From contig NW_026855520.1 of NCBI RefSeq assembly GCF_026571515.1, forward strand, positions 1-64,000: DNA of 64,000 bases, in the 5' to 3' direction. The translations under genes and the position numbers were made by a program. Positions 6,484 to 54,100 of this stretch are shown in pieces (position 1 is the stretch's first letter; each line of letters starts with the position of its first letter). The DNA is from Ruditapes philippinarum (Eukaryota). The notes under the pieces were generated by a model. The model saw only the letters and a list, made by a program, of their open reading frames with translations, did no database searches and was not told where the DNA came from.

Positions 6484-7882
6484 TTTATACGCCCGTTTGA
6501 AAAACGGGACGTATTATGGGAACGCCCCTGGCGGGCGGGCGGGCGGTCGGGCGGGCGGCGTCCAATTTTGTCCGGAGCATATCTCCTACATGTATGGAGG
6601 GATTTTAATGAAACTTCATAGAAATGTTCACCACTATGAGGAGCAGTGTCGCGCACATGAACCAGGTCTCTAGGTCACACTTAGAGCTCATTGAAAAATG
6701 CTTGTCCGGAGCAAAACTTCCACATGTATAGAGGGATTTCAATATTACTTGGCACAAATGTTCACCATTGTGAGGCGGAGTGTCGCGCGCAAGATTCAGG
6801 TCCTTGCGGCCAAGGTCAAGGTCACACATAGAGGTCAAAGTTCAGATAAAAATATGAAGATGTGTATATGGACCATTTAGTCATCATTTATTGAGGGATT
6901 GTAACACAAATGGTCATTATCATGACTACGGCTGTGACACATGTACTTTAGGTCAATATATGCAAGGTCAAGGTCACTAAAGATGGTGAAATATCCAGAT
7001 TTTGTCTGGAGCATATCTCCTACATGTATGGAAGAATTTTTATAATACTTTATGGAAATGTTCACCACCATGATATGTATTGCTCCATGCATAATCCAGG
7101 TCTCCATGTCAAAGGTCAAGGTCACACTTAGAGCTCATTGAAAAACGCTTGTCCGGAGCAAAACTTCTACATTCATAGGGGGGATTTAAATATAACATGG
7201 CACAAATGTTCACCATTGTGAGGCTGAGTGTCGCACGCAAAATTCAGATCCCTGCGACCAAAGTCAAAGTTACACATAGAGGTCAAAGTTCAGATAAAAA
7301 TTTGAAGATGTGTATAGGGACCATTTAGTCATTATTTATTGATGGATTGTAGCACAAATGGTAACTATCATGACTACAGGTGTGACACATTTAATTTAGG
7401 TTAATATTTGCAAGGTCAAGGTCACTGGAGATGATTAAATATCCAGATCTTGTCCGGAGCATATTTTCTACATGCATGGAGGAATTTTAATGTTACTTTA
7501 TAGAATTGTTCACCACCATGAGACGTAGTGCCCTGCACATGAACCAAGTCTCTAGGTCAAAGGTGAAGGTCACAGTTAGAGCTCATAGAAAAACGCTTGT
7601 CTGGAGCAAAACTTCTACATGCATAAAGGGATTTCAATATAATTTGGCACAAATGTTCATCATTGTGAGGCTGAGTGCCGTGCATAAAATTCAGGTCCCT
7701 GCGACCAAGGTCAAGGTCACACATCCTGTGCATATCTTCCCTACTGATTTGTTTTAAGGTTCATTTAACAACACAGTGCCAAGAATAAAAACTTGCTTGC
7801 TAGATAACACTTATCCATAATGCCCCCATCTCCATCTAAAGCTTTCGTAAACGGGCGTATTTTGTGACTATGGCACCCTTTT
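6484..7882 (+). mobile_element. HINE-like element with about three higher-order repeats of ~435 bp
   Basis: Subterminal inverted repeat ATACGCCCGTTT (6487) / AAACGGGCGTAT (7849). (GGGC)n microsatellite at 6529-6560. TTGTCCGGAGCATAT-like motif recurs near 6568, 7002 and 7450. AAGGTCAAGGTCAC motifs. Confidence 0.8.
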
Positions 7883-8465: not shown

Positions 8466-11014
8466 ATGATTCAAATAATGGAGAAATGTGGAATAATTCT
8501 ACTGTTGATGACTATGTCTGCCTTGCATCCAGCGACCTGTTACTTGCATAGTGACATGACTAGACTAATCGAGGATCTTTTCAACGACACAAGATACAGC
8601 AGACTTATCCGCCCAATTTACAACCAGGATAAAGTGATGGAGGTAATGGTTGACGTTCGTGATTTCGCATGATATGATTCACATGCCGTATGTTTTTGCT
8701 TTAACTTAAAGATCCGGCAACTCAATTTTGTATGGTTTGATATCATAAATATAATGCTCAAATGAAGATTTATCAAAATTGTAGGTTCCAAAAAGCATTA
8801 TTTGTCAAGATATTTCCGAATTTACATTTCATGTTAATAAAGAGAGGTAATTACAAAAATTTATTTTCTATAAAGTCTGAGGCAAATTTTTCAAAAAGAA
8901 ATGAATGCATATATCTTAATGATTACATATCATGTGGACACATAATTATTATTTGAAGTACATATTTTACTTATTCTTCGATATTTGAAAATTGTTTAAG
9001 AAGCATAATTATATACATATACTAAATTTCATTTAAGTGTGGCCGAGTGATTAAGGTCGCTGACTTGAGATCACAGGTCCCTCACCGCTGCAGGTTCGAT
9101 CCTCACCCGGGTCGAAATCTTTCATGTGAGGAAGCCATCAAGCTGGCTTAAGGAAGGTCGGTGGTTCTACCCAGGTGCCCGCTCGTGCCCGAAATAATGC
9201 CCGGAGGGGCACCTGGGGTCTTCCTCCACCAATAAAGCTGAAAAAAAATCGACGAAAAAATCTCGGCGGGACGCTCTAGGATGGCCCGACTTGAGTGTAC
9301 GGTCGCCCATATGTGCTTTCCGGCGGCGACCTTAAATAAACGCATTAAAAAAAATAACATGGTAAAACATTAATTACAACATACAAGATCTTTAAACTGC
9401 TTGAATTGATTGGTCTTTGCCACCATAGTCATTCCAGGCTGGTCAACTGTGCAATCTTACCAGGCATTATATTGTGTTGTTGTTTTCTTCTTTTTTTAAT
9501 TTTTCTCTTTTTTGTATTTTGATATTCAAATATTGTAAACTTTGAAGGACTGTCGGTTCAAAGCTCAAAGCCGACCAAGTACAATACGTGAATTGTGAAT
9601 ATTGAGGATAAATATTTAACAGTAAGGCAAACTTTACTCAAATTTCAAATAAACTTATTGCTAAATAAAGTTTATAATATATTTTTATGAATTATTTTGT
9701 GGATTATTTTAATCTAAATAAAGTCTTTTTTATACACAGGTCAACATTACTCCTGGAATTATGACTATTGAAAGTCTGGACTTAACAACGAGTGAACTTC
9801 TTACTATAATGTATATTCAGATATCATGGATCGACGAGTTTTTGATGTGGAATCCCTTTGACTATGGAGGTATCACAAAGTTACCCGTACCTTACGAAAA
9901 ACTTTGGATACCACCTTTATCACAGTCAAACGGAGCAATGAAAGAGAAGTCAGGCCAAATAATAAATCCTGGTTTTGCCCCAGTTTTCGTTTTACCTAAT
10001 GGATACGTGCTCCTCGTCACTACAGGATACTACGTAACTAACTGTGAAATAAACACTAGTTTGTATCCATTTGACTCGCATAAATGCACTTTTTATTTCT
10101 TTTCCGCGTTGAATGATGCCACAGAAATGGAGTTGAATTCTCTTACATCTGATTTTGCTCTCGGGTTACTTCAACAAAATGATGCATGGCGTCACACAAA
10201 GACTGATTTTAAAAAAGACACATTTTCAGCCGAGAATATTGCGTACAACATAGCCAGGCTTCAGTTTACGATAACACTAAAACGAAGACCTATATTTGAG
10301 ATCATAAATGTTTTTCTGCCGATTCTTCTGTTAACAGTTCTAAACCTTGCGGCTTATTTTGTTCCTGTCAATTCAGGCGAGAACGTTGCATACACTTTAG
10401 GCAGGCTTCAGTTTACGATAACACTAAAACGAAGACCTATATTTGAAATCATAAATGTTTTTCTACCCATTCTTCTGTTAACAGTTCTAAACCTTGCGGC
10501 TAATTTTGTTCCTGTCAATTCAGGCGAGCGTCTCTCATTTTCGATTACTTTATATCTTTCATTTGTATTCATAACGTCTGCAATGGTAAATGAAATGCCT
10601 CATGTCGCAAAGAATATAGCGTTTTCCTCTTACATCATGCTTTCTTTAAACGTCCTCAATACCGCAAGTGTACTTTGGAGTGTGTTTATGGTGCGGATGG
10701 CAACTTGGGCAAATCAAACGACACCGGTACCAATTTCTTTGCAGAAAGTGGTGAAGTTGGTCCACAAAATAGGTTCGACCACTTCTACGAAAGTCCATCC
10801 AAAAATAAACACAACCGATGACGATTCTGATGCAATCTCAACGGATAAAGGTCTTGAAAATTCTGATATTTATGATGAAGGAATAGTTGAAAAAGAATCA
10901 ATATTGTGGTCTGATGCAGTGAAAGTCTTTGACAAGATTTACTTTACGGTCACAACTGTTTTAGTCACATGCGTTATTTCAGTCATGATTTGTCTGTGGC
11001 ATCTTTCTGAATGA
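8466..11014 (+). CDS. Cys-loop ligand-gated ion channel subunit (nAChR-like, non-alpha), copy 1. Exons 8466-8642 and 9740-11014, ~483 aa including a 49-aa internal duplication
   Basis: Signal peptide, then RLIEDLF..YSRLIRP N-terminal helix. Phase-0 GT-AG intron (GAG|GTAATG ... ACACAG|GTC). W-x-D and WIPP motifs, Cys-loop CEINTSLYPFDSHKC (C-x13-C), LKRRP-M1, SGER-M2, M3, and M4 (FDKIYF). Confidence 0.93.
9037..9348 (+). mobile_element. tRNA-derived SINE with a V-domain-like body, in the intron of copy 1
   Basis: A box TGGCCGAGTG (9040), B box GGTTCGATCC (9093), body GGTCGGTGGTTCTACCCAGGTGCCC..CTTCCTCCACCAATAAAGCTG, A-rich tail. Confidence 0.85.
10232..10525 (+). repeat. In-frame 147-bp tandem duplication within the copy 1 CDS
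   Basis: Units 10232-10378 and 10379-10525 encode ENIAYNIARLQ...AAYFVPVNSG and ENVAYTLGRLQ...AANFVPVNSG. Confidence 0.95.
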
Positions 11015-14222: not shown

Positions 14223-15498
14223 ATGGAGAAATATCAAAGTTGAATAATTGATTTTTTTGTGTTCATGTCTGCCTTGCATACAGCGATCTGCTACTTGCAT
14301 AGTGAAATGACCAGACTTATTGAAGATCTTTTCAACAAAACAAGATATAGCTAGCAGACTTATTCACGCAATTTATAAGCAGGATAAAGTCATGGAGGTA
14401 ATTATTGATAATTTTGGTTAGACTAAGTCATGATTCAAATGCAGTTTGTTTTTGTATTACCCTTAACCAGCTTTAATCGATTGTGATTGGCTTTTGCCAC
14501 TAGTATTCAGTTATACTCAAACCGCCTGTACATCCATGAACTTGGTACCATTGTTCTATATTGTTGTTATCTCATGTTTAATAAGTTCGTCTGTTTCGAA
14601 AAAAAAGTCATACTTTTTTATTACAGAGGCATACACATGAAGTTGTTGTCGTCATGTGCAATGTAGCTTATCATTCAAATATTTTAAAAGTTATCGACAA
14701 CTATAGGATAACTTGCTAACCATGACAGTTGTGCAGTTGTTAGGGACACAATCTGAAAGCAATATTTTTTATGTCTTCCTTTCATTCGTAGAATATTTTT
14801 CAAAACAGATTATAATGGTTGTTGCCCTAAACAGACGAGCTTTAAAACCACATGCCGGGCTCTTTTTGTATGTATTTATTTATTTATTTAGTTGCAGTTA
14901 GTTTATTTTTTGTAATTAAATAATTTTCATTTACTCTTTTATATTTGGAAGCGACTGTCTGCTCAAAAATCAAAGCCGAACAAATACAATACCTTTTGAA
15001 AATTGAACATAGATAATTAACAATAAGGCAAATCCCATATCACACATAATAATTTTCTTGTAGAATAAAGNNNNNNNNNNNNNNNNNNNNNNNNNNNNNN
15101 NNNNNNNNNNNNNNNNNNNNNNNNNNNNNNNNNNNNNNNNNNNNNNNNNNNNNNNNNNNNNNNNNNNNNNNNNNNNNNNNNNNNNNNNNNNNNNNNNNNN
15201 NNNNNNNNNNNNNNNNNNNNNNNNTTTAAATTCCTTTAAAACACAGGTCAACATAACTCCTAAAATAATGACTATTGAAAGTCTGGACTTAACAAAGGGT
15301 GAACTACTTACCATCATGTATATTCAGCTGTCATGGATCGACGAGTTTCTGATGTGGAATCCCTTTGAGTATGTAGGTATCAACAAGGTTACCCGTACCT
15401 TACGAAAACTTTGGATACCACCATTATCACGACCAAACGTAGCAATGAAAGAGAAGTCAGGTCAAATAATAAATCCTGGTTTTGCCCAAGTTTTCGTT
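14223..15498 (+). pseudogene. nAChR-like copy 2, truncated pseudogene (exon 1 14223-14397; exon 2 from 15247, breaking off at ~15498)
   Basis: TGA at codon 7 (14241), a 4-bp insertion in exon 1 and a frameshift near 15383. The exon ends after INPGFA and joins sequence upstream of copy 3. Spans the N gap. Confidence 0.88.
15071..15223. other. Assembly gap (153 N)
   Basis: Run of N. Confidence 1.
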
Positions 15499-15939
15499 AT
15501 ACTTATTAAGTTATACACTTAAGATATACCATAACTTGTTGATGTGTGATAAAATCTTAGCATTTCATCTCTTCTTTTAGGCATTGCAGTGGCTCTTGTA
15601 ATTGATAGGATATCTTGTGCAGTGATGTGAAAAAAAGTACATTTTTTTTTCCACGAAAAAACTTAATTGCCTTAAAAATATTTGTTGCTCAATGGTTAAA
15701 TATTATTATAAAGATAGGTGGTAAATTGACTTGAAAGACAAAGTTTTCTTAAGGACAGCCATCGGCAAGCAAATTCATGATAATACTCTTTATTCCATAT
15801 AGTATTGAATGCGAAACACAAAAGATCCATTAGAATTATCAATATTGCTGAGACTATATTTAAATGATAGCAATTTACTGCCTCAAAACAATATTTAAAA
15901 ATTACTCACCATTTGCGTGTACATCGTAAATGATAGAAA

Positions 15940-18900
15940 ATGGAGACATATCAAAGTTGAATAGTTGCATTTTATATGTTCATGTCTGCCTTGCATCCAG
16001 CGATCTGCTACTTGCATAGAGACATGACTAGACTTATTGAAGATCTTTTCAACGACAAAAGATAAAGCAGAATTATCCGCCCAATTTATAACCAGGATAA
16101 AGTCATGGAGTTATCAGTTGATAATTTTGATTTTATACCTTCTTTTCACCAGGACAAAGTCAAGGAGGTCAAAGTTGATTAATATGGTTTGTCAGACTTC
16201 AAAAACCGTTTGTTTTTGCTTTACCCTTAATCTGATTGGAGCGATTTTGATTGGCATTTGCCATTAGTATTCAGCCACTCAAGCCGGCTGTGAATCGCCG
16301 AACTTGGTTCTATATTGTCATTATAATAATATGATTATATTAGTTTGTCTGTTTCGAGAAAAAAAGCCATACCTTAATGTTGTCAATAAATTTTGTTATC
16401 TAGGTGTAATGTTATCAAGTAATGGAAAATTTTATAATGCTCAAAAAACTTTATCTGGGCAAGCACTACGTGCCCTATTTACTCTTACTCATTATTTGAT
16501 GTTGTATCTTTAGCTGTCTCAGAAAAGTTGAAATTGTTTGATGCAATGATTTTGCCAATTTTAAACTATGGATGTGAAATATGGGGATTCCATAAAGCCC
16601 CTGATATTGAAAAAGTGTACATTTCTTAAACAGATATTGCATGTTAGACAGCAAACCACTAACATTACTGTATATGCTGAACTTGGTAAAGTACCATTAG
16701 ATATAATTAGGAAAGAACGTATTCTTAAATATTGGTGTAAAATTGTGAATTCTCCAAATACAATGGTGCACAAAAGTTTTATAGATAGTAAGCATAACAA
16801 TGTTAAGGATTCTTGGGCAGTATTTGTTAAATCATTACTAGAAAACTTAGGTTTTGCATATTTATGGAATTGTATTTCCATTTCTCAATATCAATTGAAT
16901 GCTGTGATCGAAAGATTGTATAGTCAATATTATCAAGATTTATACTCAATGATTGATACAATGCCAAAACTGAGTACCTATAAAATTATAAAAGATTGCA
17001 TTGGATTTGAAAAATATTTGACGTGTGTCAAAACTGATGTTTATCGTATTGCATTAACTAGATTAAGATGTTCATCCCATAGACTTGCAATTGAAGAAGG
17101 TCGTTTCAGAAATGTTGTAAGAGAAGATAGAAAATGTATATATTGTAAAATGAATGCTATTGAAAATGAATATCATTTTGTTCTTGTGTGCCTGCATTAT
17201 CGAGATATAAGAAATGCATGTCTCCCTAAATATTATTGCCATTGGCCAACGTCTCAGAAATTTAAAACTTTGTTAACTACACAACAGTCGAATGTTTTAA
17301 ATAAGTTAGCAAAATTTATATATTTAGCAAATATAAAACGCACTGCATTTACTGATTAGATTTATATTAGTTCAAATATAATACTGTATTACTTTTTATG
17401 CATGTAAAGCACATAATTTTGTTTGTGTGGCCTGGTAACATGTACCGATCTTGTATTATACATGTTTATACTTATACGACCCAGTTATCGGAATATTTTA
17501 TCGGACAATGTAGTAGTCACTTGCAAATAAATTTATGTGCTATCGAATTGAAATGTATAAATATGAGTGTTTCCTTATACATATATATTATAATTGACAT
17601 TTATCATCATTCTTTGTATATAACATACTCTTCTCATGATATTTGTTGCCGCCTAATATATTCATTTAGGCAAAAAACTGTATATAATGTTTATATGCCT
17701 AATAAAATATTGAATTGAATTGAATTATATGATCACTGCGGCATATAGTTGTTGTCGTCGTGCAAAAACTTTAATGTTCAATGTAGCTCATCATTCAAAT
17801 GTTTCAAAAGTTATAAACATCTTGGATAACATGCTAATCATGAAAAATGTGCAGTTGTTAGACAAGGGACATAATCAAAAAGCTTCATTTTTAGATATCA
17901 TCCTTTCAATCTCAGAATATATGTTAAAATTGATTATTATAGTCGTTGCCCTAAACAAACTAGAGTCAACACCACATGCCGTGCTCTTTTTTGTATTAAT
18001 TGATTGATTGATTTATTTATTTTAAATTATTTCATTTATTTTTTATTCTTGGTATTCACATCCTTTATTCTTTTATTTTTGTAAGTAACTATGTGCTCAA
18101 AAATCAAAGCCGGACAAGAACAATATGTGAATTTTGAAAATCAAGGATTGATAATTAAAAATAAGGCAAATCCCATATCACACATTAATAAACTTTTTGT
18201 TAAATTTTGATTAAAGATAATATCTACATGTATGGCTTTATTATTTAAATCTGAATAAATTCCTTTTATACACAGGTCAACATTACTCCTGGAATTATGA
18301 TTATTGAAAGTCTGGATTTAACAAAGGGTGAACTACTTACCGTCATGTATATTCAGCTGTCCTGAGAGTTTCTGATGTGGGATCCCTTTGAGTATGGAGG
18401 TATCACAAAGTTACCCGTACCTTACGAAAAACTTTGGATACCACCTTTATCACAATCAAACGGAGCAATGAAAGAGAATTCAGGCCAAATAATAAATCCT
18501 GGTTTAGCACCAGTTTTTGTTCTACCTAATGGAATGGTGTTCTTTGTCACTACAGAATACTACGTAACTAAATGTGAAATAGACTCTAGTTTGTATCCAT
18601 TTAACTTGCATAAATGCACTTTATATTTCTTTTCCGCATTTAATGATGTCACAGAAATGGAGTTGAATTCACATAAATCTGATTTTGCCTTAGAGTAACT
18701 TCAACAAAATGATGATTGGCTTCACACAAAGACTGATTTTAAAATAGACACATATTCAGCCGATAACACTAATAACACTAAAACGAAGACATATTTTTGA
18801 AATCATAAATGTTTTTCTGCCGATTCTTCTGTTAACAGTTCTAAACCTTGCAGCTTACATTGTTCCTGTCAATTCAGGAGAGCGTCTCTCATTTTCTATC

Positions 18901-23440: not shown

Positions 23441-23705
23441 AAAATATTTGGTTCTCTATGGCTAAATATTATCATAAAGATAGATGGTAAATTGACTTGA
23501 AATACAAAGTTTTCTTAAGGACAGCCATCGGCAAGCAAATTAATGATTCTAATCTTGATTCCATATAGTATTGAATTTTAAACACAAAAGATCCATTAGA
23601 ATTATCAATATTGCTGAGACTATATTTAAATGATAGCAATTTACTGCCTCTAAACAATATTTAAAAATTACTCACCATTTGCGTGTACATCGTAAATGAT
23701 AGAAA

Positions 23706-25170
23706 ATGGAGACATATCAAAGTTGAATAGTTGCATTTTATATGTTCATGTCTGCCTTGCATCCAGCGATCTGCTACTTGCATAGAGACATGACTAGACT
23801 TATTGAAGATCTTTTCAACGACAAAAGATACAGCAGAATTATCCACCCAAATTATAACCAGGATAAAGTCATGGAGGTATCAGTTGATAATTTTGATTTT
23901 ATACCTTATTTTAACCAGGACAAAGTCAAGGAGGTCAAAGTTGATTAATATGGTTTGTCATACTTCAAAAACCGTTTGTTTTTGCTTTACCCTTAATCTG
24001 ATTGGAGCGATTAGGATTGGCTTTTGTCATTAGTATTCATTCACTCAAGCCGACTGTGCATCCTCGAACTTGGTTCTATATTGTCACTATATTATGTTAG
24101 TTTGTCTGTTTCGAGAAAAAAGTCATACTTTTATGATCATTGCGGCATATAGTTGTTGTCGTCGTGCAATAACTTTAATGTTCAAAGTAGCTCATCATTC
24201 AAATGTTTCAAAAGTTATCAATATCTTGGATAACATACATGTGCAGTTGTTAAACAAGGGACATAATCAAATAGCTACATATTTTAGATATCATCCTTTC
24301 AATCTTAGAATATATGTTAAAACCAATTATTATAGTCGTTGTCCTAAACAAACTAGAGTCAACACCTCATGCCGTGCTCTTTTTGTATTTATTTATTTAT
24401 TTTAAATTATTTCATTTATTTTTTATTCTTGGTATTCAAATCCTTTATTCCTTCATTTTTCTAAGTAAATATCTGCTCAATAATCAAAGCCAGACAAAAG
24501 CAATATGTTAATTATGAAAATCAAGTATTGATAATTAATAATTAGGCAAATCCCTTATCACACATTAATTAACTTATTGTAGAATAAAGTTAAATTTTGA
24601 TAAAAGATAATATCTACATGAATGGCTTAATTATTTAAACCTGAATAAATTCCTTTTATACACAGGTCAACATTACTCCTGGAATTATGACTATTGAAAG
24701 TCTCGATTAAACAAAGGGTTAACTACTTACCATCATGTATATTCAGCTGTCCTGGATCGACGAGTTTCTGATTTTTGCCTTCGGGGTACTTCAAAATGAT
24801 GCTTGGCGTCACACAAAGACTGATTTTAAAAAAGTCACATATTCAGCCGAGAACATTGCATACACTGTAGGCAGTCTCAGGTTTACAATAACACTAAAAC
24901 GAAGACCTATTTTGAAATCATAAATGTTTTTTCCGCCGATTCTTCTGTTAACAGTTCTAACCTTGCGGCTAACATTTTTCCTGTCAATTCAGGAGAGCGT
25001 CTCTCATCTTCGATCACTTTATATCTTTCATATGTAATCATAACGTTTGCGTCGCAAAGAATATAGCGTTTTCCTCCTACATTATACTTTCTTTAAACGT
25101 CCTCAATACAGCAAGCGTACTCTGGCGTGTGTTTATGGTGCGGATGACAAATTTGGCAAATAAAATCACA
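23706..25170 (+). pseudogene. nAChR-like copy 4, pseudogene (exon 1 23706-23876; exon 2 24666 to ~25170)
   Basis: TGA at codon 7 (23724). A ~306-bp deletion at 24770 removes the Cys-loop. Frameshifts in M1, and truncation after M3. Confidence 0.92.
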
Positions 25171-27595: not shown

Positions 27596-29635
27596 ATGGA
27601 GAGATATCAAAGTGGAATATTTGTATTTTTCATGTTCATGTCTGCTTTGCATCCAGCGACCTGCTACTTGCATAGTGATATGACTAGACTAATCGAGGAT
27701 CTTTTTAACGAAACAAGATACAGCAGACTTATCCGCCCAATCTATAACCAGGATAAAGTTATGGAGGTAATAGTTGATTATTATGGTTTATCCTTATTGT
27801 TTTTTTTCCATTTTTTTAACCTGCTTAAAGCTATTGTGATTGGCCTCTGCCATCAGTATTCAGCCATTCAAGCCGCCTGTGCATCGTCTTTTTTGGTACT
27901 ATATATTGTGGTTATCTCAGGTTTCATTTGTTCGCCTGTTTCGAAGAAAAAGTCACATTTACAGATCACTGCGGCATATAGTTGTTGTCGTTGTGTAAAA
28001 ACTTTAATGTACAACGAAGCTCAACATTCAAATATATCTTAAAGTTATCAATCAACAACTTGGATAACTTGCTAATCATGACAGTTGTGCAGATGTTAGA
28101 CAAGGTACATAATCTGATAGCTATATTTTTTTAGATGTCTTCATTTCCACCTTAGAATACATTTCAAAACTGATTATTATAGTTGTTGCCCTAAACAGAC
28201 GAGCGTTAACACCTTATGCCGTGCTATTGTTTTGTATTAATCTATTTAAAATTATTTCATTTATTTATTTATTTTGGTATTCAAATCTTTTATTCTTTTA
28301 TTTTTTTAAGTAACCGTCTGCTCAAAAATAAGTCGGACAAAAACAATGCGCTTATTCAGAAAATCTAGGATTGATAATTAACTATAAGGCAAATCCCATA
28401 TTACACATAAATAATTTTTGAGAATAAAGTTTAATTACAATAATAGATAAAATATTTACATGAATCGCTTTATTATTTAAATCTAAAGAAATTCCTTTTA
28501 TACACAGGTCAACATCACTCCTGGAATTATGACTATTGAAAGCCTGGACTTAACAAAGGGTGAACTACTTACCATCATGTATATTCAGCTTTCATGGATC
28601 GACGAGTTTTTGATGTGGAATCCCTTTGAGTATGGAGGTATCACAAAGTTATCCGTACCTTACGAAAAACTTTGGATACCACCTTTATCACAATCAAACG
28701 GAGCAATGAAAGAGAAGTCAGGCCAAATAATAAATCCTGGTTTTGCCCCAGTTTTCGTTTTACCTAATGGAATGGTTCTCCTTGTCACTACAGGATACTA
28801 CGTAACTAAATGTGATATTGACACTAGCTTGTATCCATTTGACTCGCATACATGCACTTTTTATTTCTTTTCCGCGTTGAATGATGTCACAGAAATGGAG
28901 TTGAATTCTCACACATCTGATTTTGCCTTCGGGTTACTTCAACAAAATGATGCATGGCGTCACACAAAGACTGATTTTAAGAAAGGCACATATTCAGCCG
29001 AGAACATTGTGTACACCTTAGGCAGTCTTGAGTTTATAATAACACTAAAACGAAGACCCATATTTGAAATCATAAATGTTTTTCTGCCGATTCTTCTGTT
29101 AACAGTTCTAAACCTTGCGGCTAATTTTGTTCCTGTCAATTCTGGCGAGCGTCTCTCATTTTCGATCACTTTATATCTTTCATTTGTATTCATAACGTCT
29201 GCAATGGTAGATGAAATGCCTCATGTCGCAAATAATATAGCGTTTTCCTCCTACATAATGCTATCTTTAAACGTCCTCAATACAGCAAGTGTACTCTGGA
29301 GTGTGTTTATGGTGCGAATGGCAACCTGGGAAAATAAAATGACACCGGTACCAATTTCATTGCAGAAAGTGGTGAGGTTTTGCCAAAATATAGGTTCGAC
29401 CACTACTACAAAAGTCCATCCAAAAATAAACACAACCGATGACGATTCCGATGCAATCTCAACGGCTAAAGGTCTTGAAAATTCTGACATTTATGATGAA
29501 GGAATAGTTGAAAAAGAATCAATATTGTGGTCTGATGCAGTGAAACTATTTGACAAGATTTACTTTACGGCCACGACTATTTTAGTCACGTGCGTTATTT
29601 CAGTTATGGTTTGTCTGTGGCACCTTTCTGAATGA
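27596..29635 (+). CDS. Cys-loop ligand-gated ion channel subunit (nAChR-like, non-alpha), copy 5, intact. Exons 27596-27766 and 28508-29635, 432 aa
   Basis: Signal peptide, phase-0 GT-AG intron, Cys-loop CDIDTSLYPFDSHTC, four TM helices and an SGER ring before M2. No stops or frameshifts. Confidence 0.95.
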
Positions 29636-39488: not shown

Positions 39489-40345
39489 TTTTTATCTCCC
39501 GCCGAAAAGGCGGCGGGGGATACACATGTATAGAAATAGTCTCCGTCCGTCCGTTCGTCCTTCCGTCCCACATTTTTGTCCGGAGCATATCTCAAAAAGG
39601 TTTTGAGGTATCAACTTGAAACTTCATAGGTTAACAGATCATATTGAGGAGGAGTGCATTGCATTAGAATGATAATTCTTTCCTTCATATTTTTTCAGTT
39701 ATTGCCCTTTGTTATTTTTCAAACTTAATTTTTTGTCCAGAACATAACTCAAAATGCCTTTGAGATATCAACATGAAACTTAATAGGTGGATAGATCTCT
39801 CTCAGGAGGTGTGCAATGCACAAGAATGATAACTCAACCCTTCATAATTTTTGAGTTATTGCCCTTTGTTATTTTTCATGCTTAATTTTTAATGAGTATA
39901 GCATAACTCAAAAAGTCTTTGAGCTGTCAACATGAAACTTCATAGGTGGATAGATCTTATTGAGGAGGAATGCTGTGCGCAACAATGATAACTCTATCCT
40001 ACTCTTTATAAATTTTGAGTTATTGCCCTTTGTTATTTTTCTGCTTTTTGTACAGAGCTTCTCTCAAAAAGTGTTAGAGGTATCAACTTGAAATTTCATA
40101 GGTGGATAGATCTCATTGAGATGGAGTGCAGCACACAAGAATGATACTCTTTCTGCATTATTTTTCAGTAATTGCCTTTAGTTATTTTCAGCCATCAGTA
40201 TTCACATAGGTTTCAAACTTGTAATCACTTCAGCCATCAGTTTTCATTACCAAATTAAAGACCTCTTACTGCTCTACTACATATACATTCTTCTAATGAG
40301 CAAACAAATTCGGCGGGGTATGGCCATGTTAACATGGCTGTTGTT
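39489..40345 (+). mobile_element. HINE-like element with four tandem repeats of ~157 bp
   Basis: Subterminal inverted repeat CCCGCCGAA / TTCGGCGGG, (TCCG)n microsatellite, units near 39620, 39776, 39935 and 40091, terminal palindrome GCCATGTTAACATGGC. Confidence 0.85.
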
Positions 40346-41142
40346 GAAATTTGCATCAGCGTTTTTCCCACCCGTCATAAAGCCACCATAATTAGCCTGA
40401 TATAAGGAAACAACAAGTTAACTGCTGCAGTCCTGACTGCAAATAAATTTACCTCAGGTCAACACAAAAACAGCTAGCATGAATCCCGAAAATTATTACA
40501 ATAAATGATTCTGGTAAGTCTCACCAGATAAAGGCCTTGAAAACACTGATGATGAAGCGATACGTTTGAAATGATTAACTTTACCATTACAACTGTGTTA
40601 GTTACAAGTGTTGTTTAAGACATTATTTGTACGACTTGTTTATGGCATAATTCTGAATAAAATTGCGCCGTCTATTAAATTTGTTGGTTATACATGTGTA
40701 TATTATATTTGACAAACAAAACTAAACCCGGAAGATTACATTTTCTTTGCTTTTTAGGTCACACCAACAGTCTTAAGGTCATTTTTATACTCTAAATCAC
40801 TTGCCCTCTCAGCGCTATGGGTTCGGGTCCTAAAATAATATTATCTCATGAGATGAATGAATGCCGCTATCCCGCTAGCCTACGTAAAGTCAGTACTGCT
40901 TAAGTGCCCTCTCATGTCTAAAATAAACTTTAATTTAAATAAAAATACAAAACAGGGACATTAGTTAGATATCTTACATTATGCAATTTTTGTTTTATCT
41001 AACATTTTTATTTAGCTACTTTATTTCAGCTTATCAGCAAATGACAATGCGAATCTTAAATATCGTGTGAACAAATAACCACACTTAATGTGTCTTTTCA
41101 TTTTGTCGTAAAGCACTGTTAGCACATTTTTCAATCATCACG

Positions 41143-44100
41143 ATGGAATTACAGAACGTACTTGCTTGTATTTTTGTCTTAACGGTGATTTCGTCTACAA
41201 CCGGCCAACATGTTGTTGATGGAAATACACTGACAGAAATAATGACGGAGTTGAAGAGTTTGAAAGAGGCTCAAAATGTGCTAGATAAGTCTTCAGAGAT
41301 ACGTGATCTGAAATTTCGCGTTTTGGCTTTGGAAAATACTGTGGACGGCCTACTAGATACAGTGAAAATGTTGCAAAACGATAATAAAGAACTTGTATCC
41401 GAGATCCATCAACTACAAAATGAGAAACTACACACTTCAGTGTTGAAGGTACGAGTAATTTATCCTATCAACCAACAAAATTTTGTTAGTTTTGTCCTAT
41501 TACCGACGAACGGTATAAGGTTGCTATGCATGTTTAAGTATGGAATGCGGGGGTCAGGGGTTTTAGTTTAGTACATATTAGTAAGGGAGGGAGAAGGGGT
41601 TTCGAAAAAGTATATATATGTTTTTGGTTTCCTGTACACCTTGATTTCTTGTTTTTCTTTACAGTTTTCAGAAACATATTCAATTCGTCAATTTTTGCCT
41701 TGAAAAAGAACATTATGTCATGTGCTAAATCAATTTGCCCTTTGCTCAGCTAGTTGATGTCACTCTCAAATAAGAAATATATTTCATTAATATATTACAG
41801 ACTGACATAAATCAGCCAAAAACAGATTTGAATGAAGAGATTGACTACAAAGCAGATCTAGAAGTCACGACGGATCTACACGGAAAAGAAAATATGGAGA
41901 TAAAGAATCATATAAGCAGTATGCATGCTACATATAGCCTATAAACAACCTAAAGTTTTATCAGTTACAAAGATTTTCGACAAGCTATATGACCTTATAT
42001 AAACGGCTGTTTATAACCAGAGACGCTAGGCGAGTGTTATATTTAAAACAACCGGTTCTATACGGCGATATAACTTATCAGGAATCTTTATAACGAATTT
42101 ACAATACAGCAAGCTTCTTTTTTATAAAAAAGTGAAATATCTAAGCAGCCGTTTATATAACACTACATGTATATAAACGTCACGATAATCAAATGAAAAA
42201 CGCCATTACAAACGTGCAGTATTATAAATCTTATTATAACCGATAACATATTTATTGACAGAAGCCAGTCCTTCTGTAATGCTAATAATTTCGTTTTTAA
42301 AATTATAATGGAACATTCGGTGCCCTAGTGTGGTGGCACTGTGTTGCTGGATTTGTCGATGGGTACGTTCTTTAATTGTTACTCTGCCTTGACAATCTTT
42401 TTTCTCATACCTGACAAGCAAGCTGCTTTATCTTCGATATGTAAATGTATATTTTATAAATATGAATATGTATATAATAAAGGAAATAAATACTATAATG
42501 TATGGTAATTCAACTCAAATAATGTTTCTTCATGAAAGATTAGGTCAGAAGTTTCAAATCGCTCTTTTGTATTCTTCACAGAAACAATGGGAAAACGTGC
42601 GTTTACCTTCTCGCCAACACTTCCTGCAACATCTCCGCCACAACCAGGTATGAATTTATCGACATACAGTACGTTGCATATGTATTTTGAATTGCCCAAA
42701 CACTGAAACAAATACAACTAGAAATGTGTCGTCACGCTACGGATGCCCCCGCATGCAGCCAAAATTTCAAATGTTATAATATTTCGTTCCAAATTTGTTT
42801 TCACATTTAAAGTTCAAAGCCCTTAAAACTATTCAATGTTAACACAGATCATTTTATACAAAGTTCAAGGCACTGAAACTATTTAGTGTTAACCTTTAGT
42901 AAATTGCATATAGCATATGTGTAGCCAAAATAATGAATACATGCATTTCCACAAAAGTATGAGTGCTGAAATTTTTCCAATATTCAAGAGAGATAACTTT
43001 GTCCAAAATCATTCAACCACAGCCAAATTCAAACTTGAACAGCTTATTCCTAAGATGTATCTATAAAATGTATCTATATGTCAAATATGAGTTGACTGTG
43101 TATAACCATTGGGGAGATAATGAACAGAAACTAAAAATTTCTGATTTTTTTTTCAAAGTACAAGAGGGATAACTCTGTCAGCTATCATCAAAACCATGAC
43201 CAAATTTGAACTTGACCTGTGCATTCCTTTGACATATCCATATGTCAAATTTGAGTTGAATGTGTAATACCCTTGAGGTGATAATGAAGGGAAACTGAAA
43301 ATTTCTAATTATTTTCAAAGTGAAAGGGGCATAACTCAAGTTCGAATTTGGTCATGGTTTGATGATTTTTGGCAGAGAAATGCCACTTTTACCTTGGAAA
43401 AAAAGAAAGAAATTTTCAGTTTCCGTGCATTATCTCCCCAACAGTTGTACATATTCAACTCAAATTTAACATATGGATATGTAATAAGAATACACTGGTC
43501 ATGCTCGAATTTGGTCATGGTTTGATGATAGCATACAGAGTTATCCCTCATGAACTTTGAAAAAAATCAGAAATTTTTAGTTTCCGTTCATTATCTCCCA
43601 AATGGCTGTACACATTCAACTCAAATTTGACATATACATACATCTAAGGAATCAGCAGTTCAAGATGGTTCGATGATTTTGGATTAAGTAATCATCGTAC
43701 CATCGCGCTTTCACCATCATACCATCGTGTTTCATCATCGTACCATCGCGTTTTCATCATCGTACCATCGCGTTTTCACCATCGTGTCATCGCGTTTTCA
43801 CCATCGTCCCATTGCGTTTTCACCATCGTTCCATCGTACCATCGCCTTTCGGTCAGTATAATCAGTACACATACAGAAAGATGTCAGATTCTGTTAAGGT
43901 AGATATTAAAAAACAAGTTTAGAATACTTGATATTTAATTTTAGTTATAAATAATAAAACTTGTTATCTTTACAAAAAATTATGATGTGATACTGTATAT
44001 AGATCAACGACTATTTAATATATGGTTATATGCTATATATATGTTTGCATTTTTTCTCTTGCTTTATTTTATATATCGACTTAAAACTTTACATGTACAG

Positions 44101-46178
44101 TCCACAAGGATGACAACTTCGTTTTAATTTTTGAGTGATTGCCTTTTGTTAATTTCATGTTCCAAACACTAAGATCTAAAAGATACACAAATAGAAAGGG
44201 TGTGCGGTTCAATAATAAGAAGGCATACATTGTTGATTAAAATATAGCATTGCGCATGACCACCGGAAGACGATGGCACGTTGGTGAAAATGCGATGGTC
44301 CGATGGTGAAAACGCGATGGCACGATCGTGAAAACGCGATGGTACGATGGTGAAAACGCTATTGCACGATGGTGAAACATCGCGCTTTCACTATCGTACT
44401 ATCGCGCCATCGTGTTTTCACCAACGTACCATCGCGTTTTCATCATCGTACCATCGTGTTTTCACCAACGTACCATCGCGTTTTCACCACCGTACTATCT
44501 CGCTTTCACCATCGTACCATCGTATCACAATGGTACGATGGTGAAATCGCGATGGCGCGATAGTACGATAGTGAAAGCGCGATGTTACATCGCGTTTTCA
44601 CCATCGTACCATTGTGATTTCACCATCGTACCATCGCGTTTCCACCATCGTACCATCGCACCATCGTGTTTTCATCATCGTGCCATCGCGTTTTCACCAT
44701 CGTTCCATCGCGTTTTCACCATCGTGCCATCGCGCTTTCACCACCGTACTATCTCGCTTTCACCATCGTACCATCGCGCTTTCACCATCATCTTTTTTTC
44801 ATTTTTTCATCCGTCCGTCTGTCTATATGTCTGTCATTTCGTCCATTCAAAGAAATCTTGATCCGATGAGAACTTAAAACTTACAAAAACTATGTTCATG
44901 ATGCTTGATACATGTATGTGGACAGAGGGACTTAAAAAGCACAAAAGATAAGTTGATGATACTTAATATATAGATCGGGGACCAAGAAATCTAGGTCCTG
45001 CTATAACACAAAAAGTTCAAAGGGGAGGCTGAAGATACTTAGTATGTAGATAGAGGACCATATGGAGATTATGTATGGCATATAAATGTTTTTAATGTGG
45101 TTGCTATGGTTATAGAAATTACTAAAATAAACAACAACAATGAAATTTGATACATTACAAACATCCTGTAATTACTCATAACATTAAATTTAAAGTATGT
45201 TGTAATTAATGATGTAACAACATTTAAGTGAAAGTTTATAAACGTGTACAATTATTCTTCTAAAACAATTTCCAAACCTCCAAGAATATGTTAAATATGT
45301 ACTGCAAATGTTTATTCGCATAATAAATAATCTGTAAAATATATGCATTAAAAATTTGGTTACGTCTTTATCGAAAATAAATTTCTAATTACCTCTCTTT
45401 ATTTACATGAAATGTACATTCGGTAATATCTTTACAAATAATGCTTTTTGGACCTTACAATATTGCTATATCTTCATTTGAGCATCATATTAATGATACA
45501 AAACCTTAAAAAATTTGAGTTACAGGATCTTTAACATTTGTTCCCATGATGTAAAAGTAATGTCAATTTCCTAATTTTTGCATAATTTCTTCCTAGTTAT
45601 GTGTCAGAAATAAATTCTTTAAAAGTGAATTTACATGAGTTAATTGAGGTAGAGAATATGACAGCATAGGTAGAGGGCTACTAAAATGTCTGTGACAATC
45701 TCTTGTTGTCTTGATTGCTAGAAAATTACATCTTACGTTAAAAACATTTTCTAACATTACAGGTAACCCTGTGAATATTGCTTTTTCGGCCGCTTTATCA
45801 CAAAGTGAAGTTGACCTTAGACAAGGCGATACGATTATTTTCGACAAAGTGTTTGCAAACATAGGAAGTGCTTACAATTCCAACACCGGTGTAATCACTG
45901 CTCCCACCAAAGGCGCATACTTGGTGTCACTAGCCATGTCAATCGAGAATGGACAGAAATTTTATTTAGTACTGACGAAAGAAGGCGTGCATTTATTCGA
46001 TATTTATGCTGACAGTACTACTAATAACGAATTCACGTCTACAACCAAAGAATGGATTATCGATTTAAACCAAGGGGATAGTGTCTGGGTTCGCAGTGGA
46101 ACAAATGGCCAGCTTCATGGAAATTTACATTCAATGATTACTGGTTTTCTATTGTTTGAGACCAACTATATAAATTAA
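41143..46178 (+). CDS. Secreted C1q-domain-containing protein (signal peptide, coiled coil, linker, gC1q), 301 aa. Exons 41143-41448, 41801-41918, 42582-42647, 45763-46178
   Basis: GT-AG junctions with phases 0/1/1 join into one open frame of 906 nt. Heptad-rich exon 1. C1q motifs IAFSA, IIFDKVFANIGSAYNSNTGVITAP..GAY, LNQGDSVWV and GFLL. AATAAA at 46195. Confidence 0.9.
41925..42250. mobile_element. Degenerate long-hairpin element in C1q intron 2
   Basis: Imperfect fold-back ~41960-42095 (AAAGATTTTCGACAAGCTATAT / ATATAACTTATCAGGAATCTTT). Confidence 0.45.
42716..43692. mobile_element. Two fragments of the 52589-53998 HINE family fused in opposite orientation at 43335/43336
   Basis: 42716-43335 is the reverse complement of that element's 3' end. 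43336-43692 is the same core unit in forward orientation. Confidence 0.8.
43693..44790. repeat. 22-bp minisatellite (CACCATCGTACCATCGCGTTTT) arrays in alternating orientation around an AT-rich spacer
   Basis: Forward 43693-43848, spacer, reverse 44270-44378, forward to ~44525, reverse ~44530-44585, forward to 44790. Confidence 0.9.
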
Positions 46179-49100: not shown

Positions 49101-51100
49101 GTACTTGTTTTTAAAGTTTATGGGTCCCCAGTAGTACTTCAATTATAAATTTTTGTGATTTCCAAATTAATGAAAAGTTAATTTTAAACTGTTTTAAAAA
49201 AAAAACTGTAACACAAACTTATTTTACATCAAGGGTTTGTTTATTTTACTGTCACACTTAATCACACCCTGGGACACCTGAAAAACATCACTACAAGTCC
49301 AAATCGTTCAATTTCTGTACCATAAATTTCAAAGAATGCCTTGACTACACACCCAGTACAAACCCCCAGTTAACAAATTAAATCTTTGTGTTGACACCTT
49401 TTAGTAATTTTACGCTTCCTAGAAAAAAAATTGAAAACCGGGAGGGCTTCCATTTTACAAAATGCGTGGAATCGGCAGGAGATTAAAAATGAATACATCT
49501 TTATTTGCAAAGGGGAAAAAAAAATTTACACCGTTTAAGCGGTTGCAATCTTGTTTAAAATCTGTATGTGATATTTTTTTAAATACTTACTGGACGTGAA
49601 ATTTTGAACTGATTGAATTTAAACTAGAATTATAATGGGAAAATAGTCGGGGGGCTGTTATGAATAAAAAATTAGGATGACGAAAATAATGAAAAAAATG
49701 TTTGACAGATATTTTTTAACTTTCTTACCTTGTTATAACTCAAAGTAAGTCCAAGTCCAAATTTTGGTGAAAAATTCTAGCGACAGCATAAACAAACAAC
49801 CAAACGAAAGGAAATTTCTCAAGGCGCAAGTAATCACCGCCGCGCAAGACCCCCAACATGATGTAAATACTACACTAATTGATTTAGTTGAAAAATTTAC
49901 ATTTTTATGTTATATGAAAAAGGGCAAAGCTCAAAAAAGCGAGCTCGATTTTCTTTTACCGTAAGATAGTTTAAAATAATCGTTAATTTTTATTTTACAT
50001 TTTCCGTTTTAAAATTGTCATTCGGTATTTTATACGCTGCTTCCGTTTATTCTGGTTCCCCCTTTCTATTATGGTTCCTATATAAGTGCGCAGGACACCA
50101 GTCTACGCTTCCGTTTTCAATCAGAGTACATGGGCTTTTATCGTTATCTTGTAATTCGAAAAGTTGCGATGTGTCCAATTCGGTACTTCGGACGAAAGTT
50201 TTCAAAACCATCACTTAGCAGGTACTCGCGTTACAGTAAAGCTCGCTTTGCTAGCAGGCCCTTCGGGCCAGCTCGTCGAGCTCGCTATAAAGACTAATTC
50301 TATAATGAATTACCTAATCACATTCATTAATTATTTATTAGTCCAACTAATAAGACTTGTCAGAGACAACGAGATAATTTTTGGACAGGCAGTCTTTTTC
50401 CAACGGTATGAAAAAGTTTGTAAAATGGGTCAATCCATTCATGCTGAATAAATTAGGCTACTTGTTAATGGAAAGATAGTGTTTGGGAAATTAGCTTTGT
50501 TATTTAGGCAGTGGCTAGCCATATGGGCCCATAATCATAATCCATTAAAGATTTTGATTATATATTATAATATATATTATACAGGGTGTTCACTAGCCAT
50601 GAAATCCTTAGGGTCATTTTGACTAAGTTTGACCGACTACAAGGCAAAATCCCCATGATTTTAACAAAATTTGACCCTCCAGTTAAAATCCTGAGGGTCA
50701 AATCTGGCCTTTTGGAAATTTGAAGGGTCAGAGAGTCATTTCAAGACTCAAACGGATACCCCATACATGTATATATATACTTTTATTTTTAATTAGAAAA
50801 AAAGTTTCTGGTGTAATGAAGTGGTGACCCAATAGAGTTATGACCTGTCATGTAACTGCACATGTTGCTATAATTAGATAAACATCAGCAAAGCCAATAT
50901 ATCTTGCATTAATCTTTGGCATTAACAATATTATCAATACACATAACATAAATTTCTTTTGTGATAATTTAATGTCTCACAGTCTGCAAGATTTTTTTAA
51001 AAAATAATTCTTAAGAATCTGTGTATTTAAATAATGGTATTTATACTCGTTTAATATTTTTCTGTCTTTTTGTTTAAGCAGGTTTCTCTCAGGTTTGATA

Positions 51101-54100
51101 ATGACCAGTCAGAGAGATGCTTTCAGTTACCGGAGTGTTTCTCCGACAATGTCACCGACACTTTCTCCACATGCATCTCCCCCATCATCACCATACTTCT
51201 CCAAGACAGAGGACCCTGCGAGGCAGGAACTGAGATTATCGGCAAATGCAAAACGACAGAAATATTTGAGGCGGTTGTTAAAATTTAAACAGATGGATTT
51301 TGAATATGCATTCTGGCAAATGATATATCTGTTTGTAGCGCCACAAAAAGTGTAAGATAAAGTTTTTGTAAATTGTATTTACAATAGTTTTATAGGTTAG
51401 CGATGAAGATAAATAGTGTTCCTATTGACTTGTTAAAAGTTATACATACCTCAAATTTTGAAATAAGGAGGCAAGCATACAATTATTATTATATACATGT
51501 ATAAAGGTTTTTTCAAATTAGGGGCTCAAGGAAAATTACTTACACTGTATCTATAATAGTTTAAAACAGCATACCTCCAGAAGATATTTTATATATTTGA
51601 AAATCTTGCTGTATGTGTTTAATTATTTAGAAAAAAAAAATACTATGATTCCAAATGGACCAAATAATAAAGTATTGTTTGATTTATAATGTGTAACATG
51701 AATATATTTATGTTTGTCTATTATTTTACTTTTATTAACACTGTCTGATAGACATCTGTATCACTATTGATCCATTTTAATACATATACCAGCTTTATTT
51801 ATAACATAAATATTTGTTTCTACATGTTACCCTATTTTTGCTGCTAAACGCCATAAAGTTTTACGCGTGTTCCGTTATGACGTCGCTTCCTTATGTTTTG
51901 CACTGATGAAGGCATATAGCCGAAATGTATGCAATAAATAATTACTGAATGTTTGTGTTTGTTTATTTCAATTATTTAAAAGAAACTTTTCTGCCTTTTT
52001 CAGATACAGAAATTTTCAGTATAGGAAAAGTAAGTAAGAAACATTATTCAGTGTCCTGGTTTCTTTGAAGTATTCTGAATCAGTTTTCACAAAAGACTTA
52101 ATTTAAGTAATCTTTTCTGAAAATTCATGTAAATACATGACTGTGTATATGCATAAAGTAATTATCCACCCATTCATACAATTTACAAATGCCAACATTA
52201 CATGCTAATGATGTATAGGTTTGTAAATTGAACAGATTCAATATCTGTATTGCATTGTTTTGTTTTGTTTCAAGCACTAACTGTAACATTTTATCTCTTT
52301 CACCTTCAGCTATGGAAATTTGAGTTATTCACTTAATAATAAGTGCTCTGTATATCTTATTTCAGACACAAAAGACCAGTGGGCAAGAGATGACCCTGCT
52401 TTCCTAGTCTTGCTGAGTTTTTGGTTGATAAGTATGTAATGTTTGCTTGGTTTAAAATCCTTTCTCAAATCTATAATTGTTGATTTAGCCTTATTACATG
52501 TACATTTCAGTTTTCTCTGAAAATCATGCATTAATTGGTTTCTTTTTCAAGTAGATTATTTAAATTTAATATAGGTAAAGTTTAAAGATTTTTATGCCCC
52601 CGCCATGTAATGGCCGGGGCATAAAGTGTTACCCTGTTCCGTCCTTCCGTCCTTCCGTCATTCCGTCATTCTGTCATTCCGTCATCATCAGTTTCCGTTC
52701 ATTATCTTAGTAACGGTTGCACACATTCAACTCAAATTTGACATATGGATATGTCGTGAGAAAATACAAGTCAAGTTCGAATTTGGTCATGGTTTTGATG
52801 ATTTTTGCAGAGTTATGCCCCTTTACTTTAAAATAATATGAAATTTTCAGTTTCCGTTCATTATCTCCCAATGGTACAACACATTCAACTCAAACTTTGA
52901 CATATGGATTATGTCATGAGAAAAATACAGGTCAAAGTTCGAATTTGGTCATGGGTTCGATGATTTTTGGCAGATGTTATGCCCCTTTTACTTTGAAAAT
53001 AATATGAAATTTTCAGTTTCCGTTCATTATCTCCCCAACAGTACAACACATTCAACTCAAATTTGACATATGGATATGTCGTGAGAAAATACAGGTCAAG
53101 TTCGAAATTTGGTCATGGTTCAATGATTTTTGGCAGAGTTATGCCCCTTTCACTTTGGAAATGATATGAAATTTTCAGTTTCCGGTCATTATCTCCCCAA
53201 TGGTACAACACTTTTAACTCAAACTTGACATATGGATACGTTAAGGGAATGCGCAGGTCAAGTTCAAAGTTGGTTATGGTTCAATGATTTTTGGCAGAGT
53301 TATGCCCCTTTCACTTTGAAAATAATATGAAATTTTCAGTTTCTGTTTATTATCTCCCAATGGTACAACACATTCAACTCAAATTTGAGATATGGATATA
53401 TTTTTGGAATGCCCAGGCCAAGTTGGAATTTGGTCATGGTTCAATGATTTTTGGCAGAGTAATGCCCCTTTCACTTTGAAAATAATATGAAATTTACAGT
53501 TTCTGTTCATTATCTACCCAACTACTCAAATTTGACATATGGATATGTCAAAGGAATGGGCAGGTCAAGTTTGAATTTGGTCATGGTTCGATGACTTTTG
53601 GCAGAGTTATGTCCCTTTCACTTTGAAAATAATATAGATACATCTTAGGAATAAGCAGTTTAAGTTTGAATTTGGTCGTGGTTCAATGATTTTGGACAAA
53701 CTTATCTTTCTTGAATGTTGTAAAAATTTTGAACTTTCAGTTTCAGCACTGAAATGTATGTAGCCATTATTTTGGCTACAAATATGAAATATGCTATTTT
53801 CAAAAGGTTTAGACTGAATAATTTCAGTGCCTTGAACATTGTATGAAAATGGTTTGTGTTAACATTGAAAAGTTTTAAGGGCTTTGAACTTAAAATGAAA
53901 AAAATTATTTGTGCAAACAAATTTGGAACTAAATATTATAACATCTGAAATTTTGGCTGCATGCGGGGGCATCCGTGGCATGATGACACATTTCTAGTAT
54001 CAATATTGTATGCCTTAGTCATGTCTTGCTGGTTTAGAGAGAACAAATATAGTAACAAACTGTGATCTTAGTAATATGAAGTAACATATATATTCTCTTT

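Follow-up and report, generated by a model that had tools for sequence, protein, structure and literature searches.

A fast-changing loop C hairpin in a tandem array of nicotinic-receptor-like genes of the clam Ruditapes philippinarum

In a stretch of 64,000 nucleotides from Ruditapes philippinarum (the window), neighbouring copies of a gene for an ion channel subunit differ strongly at a short extracellular hairpin, loop C, and hardly at all in the pore region that follows. A sequence-only reading of this DNA had attributed the pattern to diversifying selection on ligand or toxin contacts. The question is whether the hairpin is driven to change, or is held less tightly than the channel. The locus consists of two-exon genes for non-alpha nicotinic acetylcholine receptor (nAChR)-like subunits, arranged in tandem. 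Comparison of the window with itself revealed five head-to-tail copies of one two-exon gene, and a sixth, copy 0, lies on an adjoining contig, which makes six copies in a row. The single intron of the array gene has GT/AG ends, within the zero to two introns of the intron-poor tandem genes of bivalves. The array is part of the already known bivalve nAChR expansion and is not new in kind. Its features are as follows, with codons numbered in exon 2 of copy 5 (codon 1 at 28511).

27596..27766, + strand: copy 5 exon 1 of 57 codons, with helix 1 and a start resembling a signal peptide; followed by a GT donor
28508..29635, + strand: copy 5 exon 2, Cys-loop extracellular domain, M1-M4 and stop, frame open
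28985..29038, + strand: hairpin window of copy 5 (codons 159-176), from the end of beta9 through the loop C tip (163-168) into the first half of beta10
29039..29326, + strand: copy 5 end of beta10 and M1-M3, codons 177-272, dN/dS about 0.05
29327..29389, + strand: copy 5 post-M3 stretch and MX helix, codons 273-293, an intracellular second fast block
8478..8642, + strand: copy 1 exon 1, 55 codons
9740..11014, + strand: copy 1 exon 2, open frame with an internal in-frame duplication, XP_060588119.1 (479 aa)
10217..10270, + strand: copy 1 hairpin window, first repeat, DTFSAENIAYNIARLQFT
10235..10528, + strand: tandem duplication in copy 1, 147 nt, in-frame, with loop C tip, beta10 and M1 doubled
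14224..15505 (start approximate), + strand: copy 2, broken, with stops in exon 1, a frameshift, and exon 2 ending after about 85 codons
15930..19352 (start approximate), + strand: copy 3, pseudogene with stops in both exons
23700..25166 (start approximate), + strand: copy 4, pseudogene with a stop in exon 1 and frameshifts, cut off after M3
24834..24887, + strand: copy 4 hairpin window, VTYSAENIAYTVGSLRFT
G000:C6085:174767-175899, adjoining contig: copy 0, intact, 91% identical

Only two of the six copies (0 and 5) are clean and full-length, copy 5 being alone in this within the window, and three of the six (copies 2-4) are broken. The intron of copy 2 contains an N stretch at 15071-15224. Copy 3 has deletions of 29 nt through loop C/beta10 and of 22 nt after M2; copy 4 has lost about 100 codons of the extracellular domain and has the 22-nt deletion in common with copy 3. 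An insertion of about 1.3 kb in the intron of copy 3 (16380-17725) holds a 264-codon open frame (16565-17359) that matches no Pfam family and that we take to resemble the 3' end of a LINE reverse transcriptase. Where the end of the adjoining contig overlaps the start of the window, the two differ by 2-3%; the non-coding DNA (intron and flanks) of copies 0 and 1, by contrast, is 8-12% divergent. Copy 0 is therefore most likely the upstream neighbour in the array, and its identity as an allele of copy 1 was rejected on the same comparison.

The encoded protein is predicted to be a subunit of a Cys-loop pentameric ligand-gated ion channel. Exon 2 of copy 5 matched the Pfam family PF02931 (Neur_chan_LBD, E=2e-26) above its cut-off and PF02932 (Neur_chan_memb, E=1e-4) below its cut-off. 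Among solved structures, the closest by sequence are 5-HT3A (E=1e-29), the octopus receptors CRT1 (3e-25) and CRB1 (1e-19), and nAChR subunits. A structure model from 71 sequences (pLDDT 83.6), which replaced an earlier 10-sequence model of pLDDT 57, places beta9 at codons 149-162, a six-residue tip at 163-168 and beta10 at 169-181, followed by predicted helices M1 (183-206), M2 (213-235), M3 (245-271), MX (282-295) and M4 (340-373). The model superposes on nAChR chains with TM-scores of 0.74-0.81 for the top 20 listed, and of 0.80 on nAChR alpha; identity to vertebrate relatives in this fold search is 17-20%. The Cys-x13-Cys loop is formed by C101-C115 and is kept across the 71-row alignment. 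The Cys-loop fold, together with the GER motif before M2, suggests a cation-channel subunit.

The principal face of this subunit is unlikely to bind acetylcholine. The canonical pocket is described, in the available text of PMC11050823, as five aromatics and the vicinal cysteines. The tips of the array copies read AENIVY, AENVAY or AENIAY and lack the vicinal cysteines of nAChR alpha subunits; the RefSeq name of copy 1 is nonetheless 'alpha-like'. Of the principal-face aromatics, TyrA is replaced by Ser and TrpB by Ala122 in the alignment with 5-HT3A, where loop B FFSALN faces FTSWLH, and loop A (WIPPLSQSN) has no Tyr. The complementary-face aromatic of loop D is retained as Tyr24. With the vicinal cysteines, TrpB and TyrA lost, the subunit would have no essential acetylcholine contact in its own loop C. 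A match to alpha7 pairs codon 173 with residue 197 of the alpha7 chain. By ungapped extension the variable codon 170 would fall on the TyrC2 position, and a shift of two residues would place the invariant Tyr168 there instead.

The hairpin of copy 5 (28985-29038, + strand) translates to GTYSAENIVYTLGSLEFI. A recount bore out the figures of the sequence-only reading: copies 5 and 1 differ at 9/18 residues in the hairpin and at 2/96 in M1-M3 (D/N and N/K), and the changes that it had placed in loop E (codon 88) and loop F (134 and 140) are present. Elsewhere in the extracellular part of exon 2 these two copies differ at 13/158 residues. The two further hairpin variants that had been listed, VTYSAENIAYTVGSLRFT in copy 4 and ENVAYTLGRLQFT in the second repeat of copy 1, do have these sequences, but copy 4 is dead and the second repeat is that of copy 0, so that there are three live hairpin versions at most. 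The best 18-codon window of the copy 5/1 pair had P=0.002 after shuffling. With the same correction for scanning, the hairpin excess was not significant for copies 5/0 (5/18, P=0.62) or copies 0/1 (6/18, P=0.23), for which Fisher tests of the hairpin vs the remainder of the domain, uncorrected, gave P=0.018 and P=0.004, respectively; copies 5 and 0 differ at 1/96 residues in M1-M3. Pairwise comparison of copies 0, 1, 4 and 5 over codons 165-176 gave 7-11 differences in 36 nt (19-31%) for each of the six pairs, and over the next 37 codons the same four variants differ at 2-7 of about 110 nt (2-6%).

The post-M3 stretch is as variable as loop C, with 8/21 differences for copies 5/1, 9/21 for copies 0/1 and 4/21 for the third pair. 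According to the model, six of the nine hairpin changes would lie in beta10, two in beta9 and one in the six-residue tip. Residues S162, A163, N165, Y168, L173 and F175 are unchanged among the four variants, the A-E-N and Tyr of the tip being constant, and the hairpin changes are no more radical than those elsewhere (mean BLOSUM62 0.44-1.17 vs 0.24-0.46). One of the two transmembrane (TM) changes, D234N, occupies the M2 20' position in the conventional prime numbering. This D/N difference (29210-29212) separates copies 0 and 5 from copy 1, and is also found in the record P0003; it could alter conductance or calcium permeability.

Codon models (GY94, F3x4) were fitted to the three open-frame copies (0, 1 and 5) with our own Python code, which was not compared with codeml and gave false positives in 3/25 null simulations; copy 1 was represented by its first repeat to codon 176 and by its second thereafter. 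Loop C, a window picked after the fact, had a dN/dS of 1.85 against 0.32 for the rest of the protein (P=4e-5). This value was not significantly different from 1 (P=0.11), and became 1.22 (P=0.76) with a local synonymous rate, which the fits raised 1.5-2.5 times at loop C (not significant by itself, P=0.50 for three copies). Codons 165-176 alone gave 2.31 (P=0.056), and 0.90 with their own synonymous rate. When copy 4 was added, loop C stood at 1.48-1.56 on three trees (P 0.17-0.22) and at 0.75-0.90 with a local synonymous rate, and counting estimates for the three open-frame pairs were 2.21, 0.76 and 0.63 (Fisher P 0.35-0.86). Site models gave no significant result (M1a/M2a P=0.34, M7/M8 P=0.34, M8a/M8 P=0.15), and none of the eight sites with a posterior above 0.5 (88, 102, 114, 126, 288, 291, 331 and 364) falls in the hairpin window. 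The MX block had a dN/dS of 1.59 (P=7e-5 vs the rest), or 1.05 with its own synonymous rate. M1-M3, at 0.05, is under strong purifying selection, as seen in every pair. A simulated window mean was recovered in 14/25 cases for a dN/dS of 2, in 22/25 for 3 and in 25/25 for 5; strong selection across the hairpin window is therefore unlikely, which leaves room for weak or few-site selection.

Comparison with non-coding DNA gave a similar picture. Loop C pN was 0.14 vs 0.275 in the intron for copies 5/0, and 0.23 vs 0.245 for copies 5/1, the intron figures for copy 5 coming from about 270 alignable bases and being perhaps somewhat inflated; upstream DNA of the copy 5 pairs diverged by 0.24-0.26. 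For copies 0/1 the loop C pN of 0.148 lies above the 0.080 of the intron (P=0.11). The hairpin is thus likely to differ at no more than about the speed of neutral DNA. From the earlier proposal of diversifying selection there remain a fast hairpin, a TM region under purifying selection and an excess specific to this subfamily; a dN/dS above 1 was not obtained in any significant test, and with local synonymous rates the estimate moves to 0.75-1.2, partly into the range of 1 or below that the proposal itself had named as evidence against it.

The sequences of the array copies point to mosaics produced by gene conversion between them. The 28 informative sites among copies 5, 0, 1 and 3 are divided over the three quartet trees (15, 7 and 6) and are clustered into 11 runs (P=0.003, a generous value, some sites lying in one codon). 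Exon pS between copy 5 and copies 0/1 is 0.14, half that of non-coding DNA (0.24-0.28; P=7e-5 and 0.001), whereas for copies 0/1 the exon value of 0.085 matches the 0.080 of the intron. The gap is found in the copy 5 pairs but not in 0/1, and therefore argues for homogenisation rather than for a general synonymous constraint. In M1-M2 (codons 177-246) pS is 0.04 and 0.09, against 0.25-0.28 in the intron, so that homogenisation of the TM region by conversion, which had also been named as speaking against selection, partly holds. In M3 (codons 247-272) pS reaches 0.32-0.38 with zero amino-acid changes; full synonymous divergence without replacement means that purifying selection holds M3, and conversion may have flattened M1-M2. 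Conversion alone as the cause of an invariant TM region was accordingly ruled out for M3 and is possible for M1-M2. Codons 16-27 form an old tract similar to that at loop C, with low dN/dS. Because synonymous heterogeneity along the exon was not significant (P 0.08-0.82), the borders of conversion tracts are descriptive and drawn after the fact.

Copy 1 contains codons 165-213 twice. The two repeat units differ at 7/36 and 4/111 nt, and over codons 165-176 the second unit is identical to copy 0 (0/36 nt different). At the junction (10381/10382) the M1-M2 linker is followed by a loop C of the copy 0 type, and an 11-nt stretch at this point matches loop C sequence at 10/11 positions. An unequal, mis-registered exchange between paralogues at the 11-nt near-match may have generated the duplication. 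Its product would gain a fifth membrane helix, by which the subunit would probably be spoiled. The RefSeq protein XP_060588119.1 takes in the duplication and so carries M1 twice. P0003, an independent JGI record, has the hairpin and tail of copy 1 without the duplication.

We performed a search of the genome for further members of the family, in which 110 of 468 candidates were scored and at least 112 matches were obtained, that is, over 100 paralogues. The controls comprised 106 loci (copies 1-4 and one match on contig C13981 being left out), 103 of them with a frame of at least 250 residues, and 30 disjoint pairs at 84-99.9% identity, some perhaps alleles, from which the copy 5/0 pair was excluded. 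These pairs had a dN/dS of 0.32 (0.19-0.55) in loop C, 0.27 (0.22-0.35) in the rest of the domain, 0.16 in M1-M3 and 0.40 in MX, with residue differences of 32/466 in loop C vs 312/4615 in the rest of the domain. None of the 30 pairs had a significant excess in loop C (P<0.05). The control pairs likewise lack the vicinal cysteines and show no excess, and loss of the alpha motifs alone therefore does not explain the fast loop C. M1a/M2a was significant in 0/9 clades of 4-6 genes (lowest P=0.12), and family-wide selection on loop C was rejected at the available power by the pairs and clades together. One clade alone (L112, L120, L121 and L123; P=0.12) hinted at a high class, with a dN/dS of 8.2 in less than 1% of sites, and these sites are codons 28 and 86, on the side of loops D and E and not in loop C. 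A bigger array (L007-L028, contigs C5552, C402, C15361 and C15684 of G000) holds 31-40% identical subunits in both orientations. It is the closest outgroup, with a dN/dS of 0.20-0.26 and no selected sites, and probably lies on several haplotype contigs.

Between species the hairpin again stands out. Against five homologues at 48-72% identity it ranks within the top 8-27 of 153 extracellular windows by divergence, at about 1.5-2.3 times the average of the domain, and for the two closest homologues MX equals or exceeds it. Differences from P0004 number 7/18 in the hairpin vs 32/152 in the rest of the domain, and those from a Mercenaria protein 11/18 vs 41/152. This subfamily-specific excess across species is the best evidence for something particular at this locus, and is compatible both with a long-standing loose constraint and with repeated tuning. 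No relative was found on the metagenome contigs by protein search or by a 20-nt pattern.

We favour, with moderate confidence, relaxed constraint combined with gene conversion as the best reading of the fast loop C. The loop C hairpin and the post-M3 stretch would be weakly constrained and drift at close to the neutral rate, purifying selection would keep the channel helices, and patchy conversion between copies would likely deepen the contrast between loop C and the TM region. Conversion may have halved the exon synonymous divergence of copy 5 from copies 0/1, with blocks such as beta10 staying at an older, intron-like level. The array, its broken copies, the regional rates and the mosaic ancestry are direct observations. 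Several points count against this reading: the excess is confined to this subfamily and persists between species, the loop C pN of copies 0/1 lies above their intron level, codons 165-176 alone reach 2.31, synonymous heterogeneity along the exon is not significant, a hairpin mean near 1 that includes invariant sites masks sites above 1 as easily as it reflects neutrality, and the open-frame copies number three. It is somewhat unlikely that selection instead keeps distinct loop C/beta10 versions and purges the conversions that erase them, with tuning to different non-acetylcholine ligands. Such selection would fit the six pairs that differ by 19-31% at 36 nt beside a block at 2-6%, in an array where conversion is active and the local synonymous rate is raised 1.5-2.5 times (P=0.50), as well as an excess that is subfamily-specific and persists between species. 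Codon 170 also falls on TyrC2 by ungapped extension, if the alpha7 numbering is as we take it to be, and the divergence peak is the signature described for the red/green opsins in the available text of PMC3924837. Yet the intracellular MX block peaks alike, codons 16-27 are an old tract with low dN/dS, the tip is invariant, the changes are mostly mild and no dN/dS test is significant; half of the copies, and with them one of the four variants, are pseudogenes, and 0/9 other clades are significant. A further-reaching picture, which we consider quite unlikely, is that of a subfamily of nAChR-derived chemoreceptors of venerid clams, evolved independently of the octopus chemotactile receptors (CRs), in which selection against conversion would keep a small set of loop C/beta10 cassettes that are reshuffled between tandem copies, the copy 1 duplication being a mis-registered swap.

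Evasion of toxins, in which predator or algal toxins that bind nicotinic receptors drive the change of loop C, is highly improbable. Cyclic-imine algal toxins build up in bivalves and loop C sets subtype selectivity, as stated in the available text of PMC11050823, but the toxin site described there consists of five aromatics capped by the vicinal-cysteine loop, and the clam subunit has Ser at TyrA, Ala at TrpB and no cysteine in loop C. Evasion would moreover be expected in essential alpha subunits, not in a half-dead array, and dN/dS is not significantly above 1. An artefact of comparing decaying or mis-assembled copies is improbable as well. Copies 2-4 are broken, copy 1 is oddly duplicated and is involved in the strongest contrast (9/18), but P0003 has the copy 1 hairpin without the duplication, and the repeat units differ, unlike those of a duplicated read. 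The intact copies 0 and 5 still show 5/18 vs 1/96, every pair shows purifying selection on the TM region, and the orthologues have the same profile.

Jiao et al. 2019 reported 99-217 nAChR genes in five bivalves, intron-poor, in tandem and many without principal binding sites (PMC6896357, available text). The genes described here resemble theirs in being bivalve genes with one intron, in tandem, with the alpha cysteines and principal residues lost and with silent or broken copies; the fast hairpin, the mosaic ancestry and the internal duplication are not part of that account in the text available. The words 'selection', 'gene conversion', 'toxin', 'chemosens' and 'Ruditapes' are absent from the main text of PMC6896357, which contains no analysis of selection or conversion. 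Like CRT1 and CRB1 of octopus and squid (PDB 8EIS and 8EIZ), the clam subunits are nAChR-derived, of the same fold and without a canonical acetylcholine site, and the match to CRT1 (3e-25) is no better than that to 5-HT3A (E=1e-29). Site models gave many positively selected pocket sites in the octopus CRs (PMC11526382, section 4.2, available text), whereas the clam array, with three to four copies, gave no significant selected site. With vertebrate 5-HT3A and nAChR the clam subunit shares the Cys-loop, a beta9-beta10 hairpin of near-equal length, the GER motif, L9' and the MX helix; unlike them, it lacks TrpB, TyrA and the vicinal cysteines, and has a short M3-M4 loop and one intron. The array is reminiscent of exon 5 of the red/green opsins in its local divergence peak within partly homogenised tandem duplicates. 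In the opsins, according to the available text of PMC3924837, homogenisation affects the introns and the functional sites have been identified, whereas in the clam non-coding DNA is more divergent and there is a second, intracellular peak.

This is one more array in a known expansion, and its profile, in which the pore is conserved and the outer hairpin variable, is what would be expected. Among 31 close comparisons within the genome, a fast loop C was seen in this subfamily only. Three natural hairpin variants on a near-constant channel are suited to direct swaps, and bear on the function of the hundred-odd subunits. We found no literature on positive selection or chemosensing in bivalve nAChRs or on this clam array, in a search that left subscription journals mostly outside its coverage. 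If selection were demonstrated, this would be, within the literature searched, the first indication in a bivalve of ligand tuning like that of the CRs.

Four raw RNA runs were compared with copy 5. Two runs of one study gave 176 and 152 reads, and the other two gave intron-repeat reads only. The reads cover both exons thinly, and most carry copy 0/1 letters (the library is unstranded); at position 28630, 25/25 reads have the copy 1 letter. Neither a splice joint nor the duplication joint was found among the listed reads. These data hint at weak transcription of a copy 1-type gene. Acetylcholine receptors are listed as expressed in the clam foot, in the available text of PMC11592408, where the array genes are not named.

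Downstream of the array the window contains C1q-domain genes on opposite strands (41089-46178), with a coiled-coil-like exon at 41089-41571 (+ strand) and a C1q domain exon at 45696-46178 (- strand; PF00386, E=8e-22). The first exon of an UNC-50 family gene (PF05216) lies at 51035-51355, about 21 kb from the array. UNC-50 is a Golgi factor for nAChR trafficking in C. elegans, and its position near the array is probably due to chance. Arrays of a repeat of about 140-165 nt occupy 400-1196, 6561-7724, 39573-40188, 42972-43668 and 52688-53635, and are common to the adjoining contigs.
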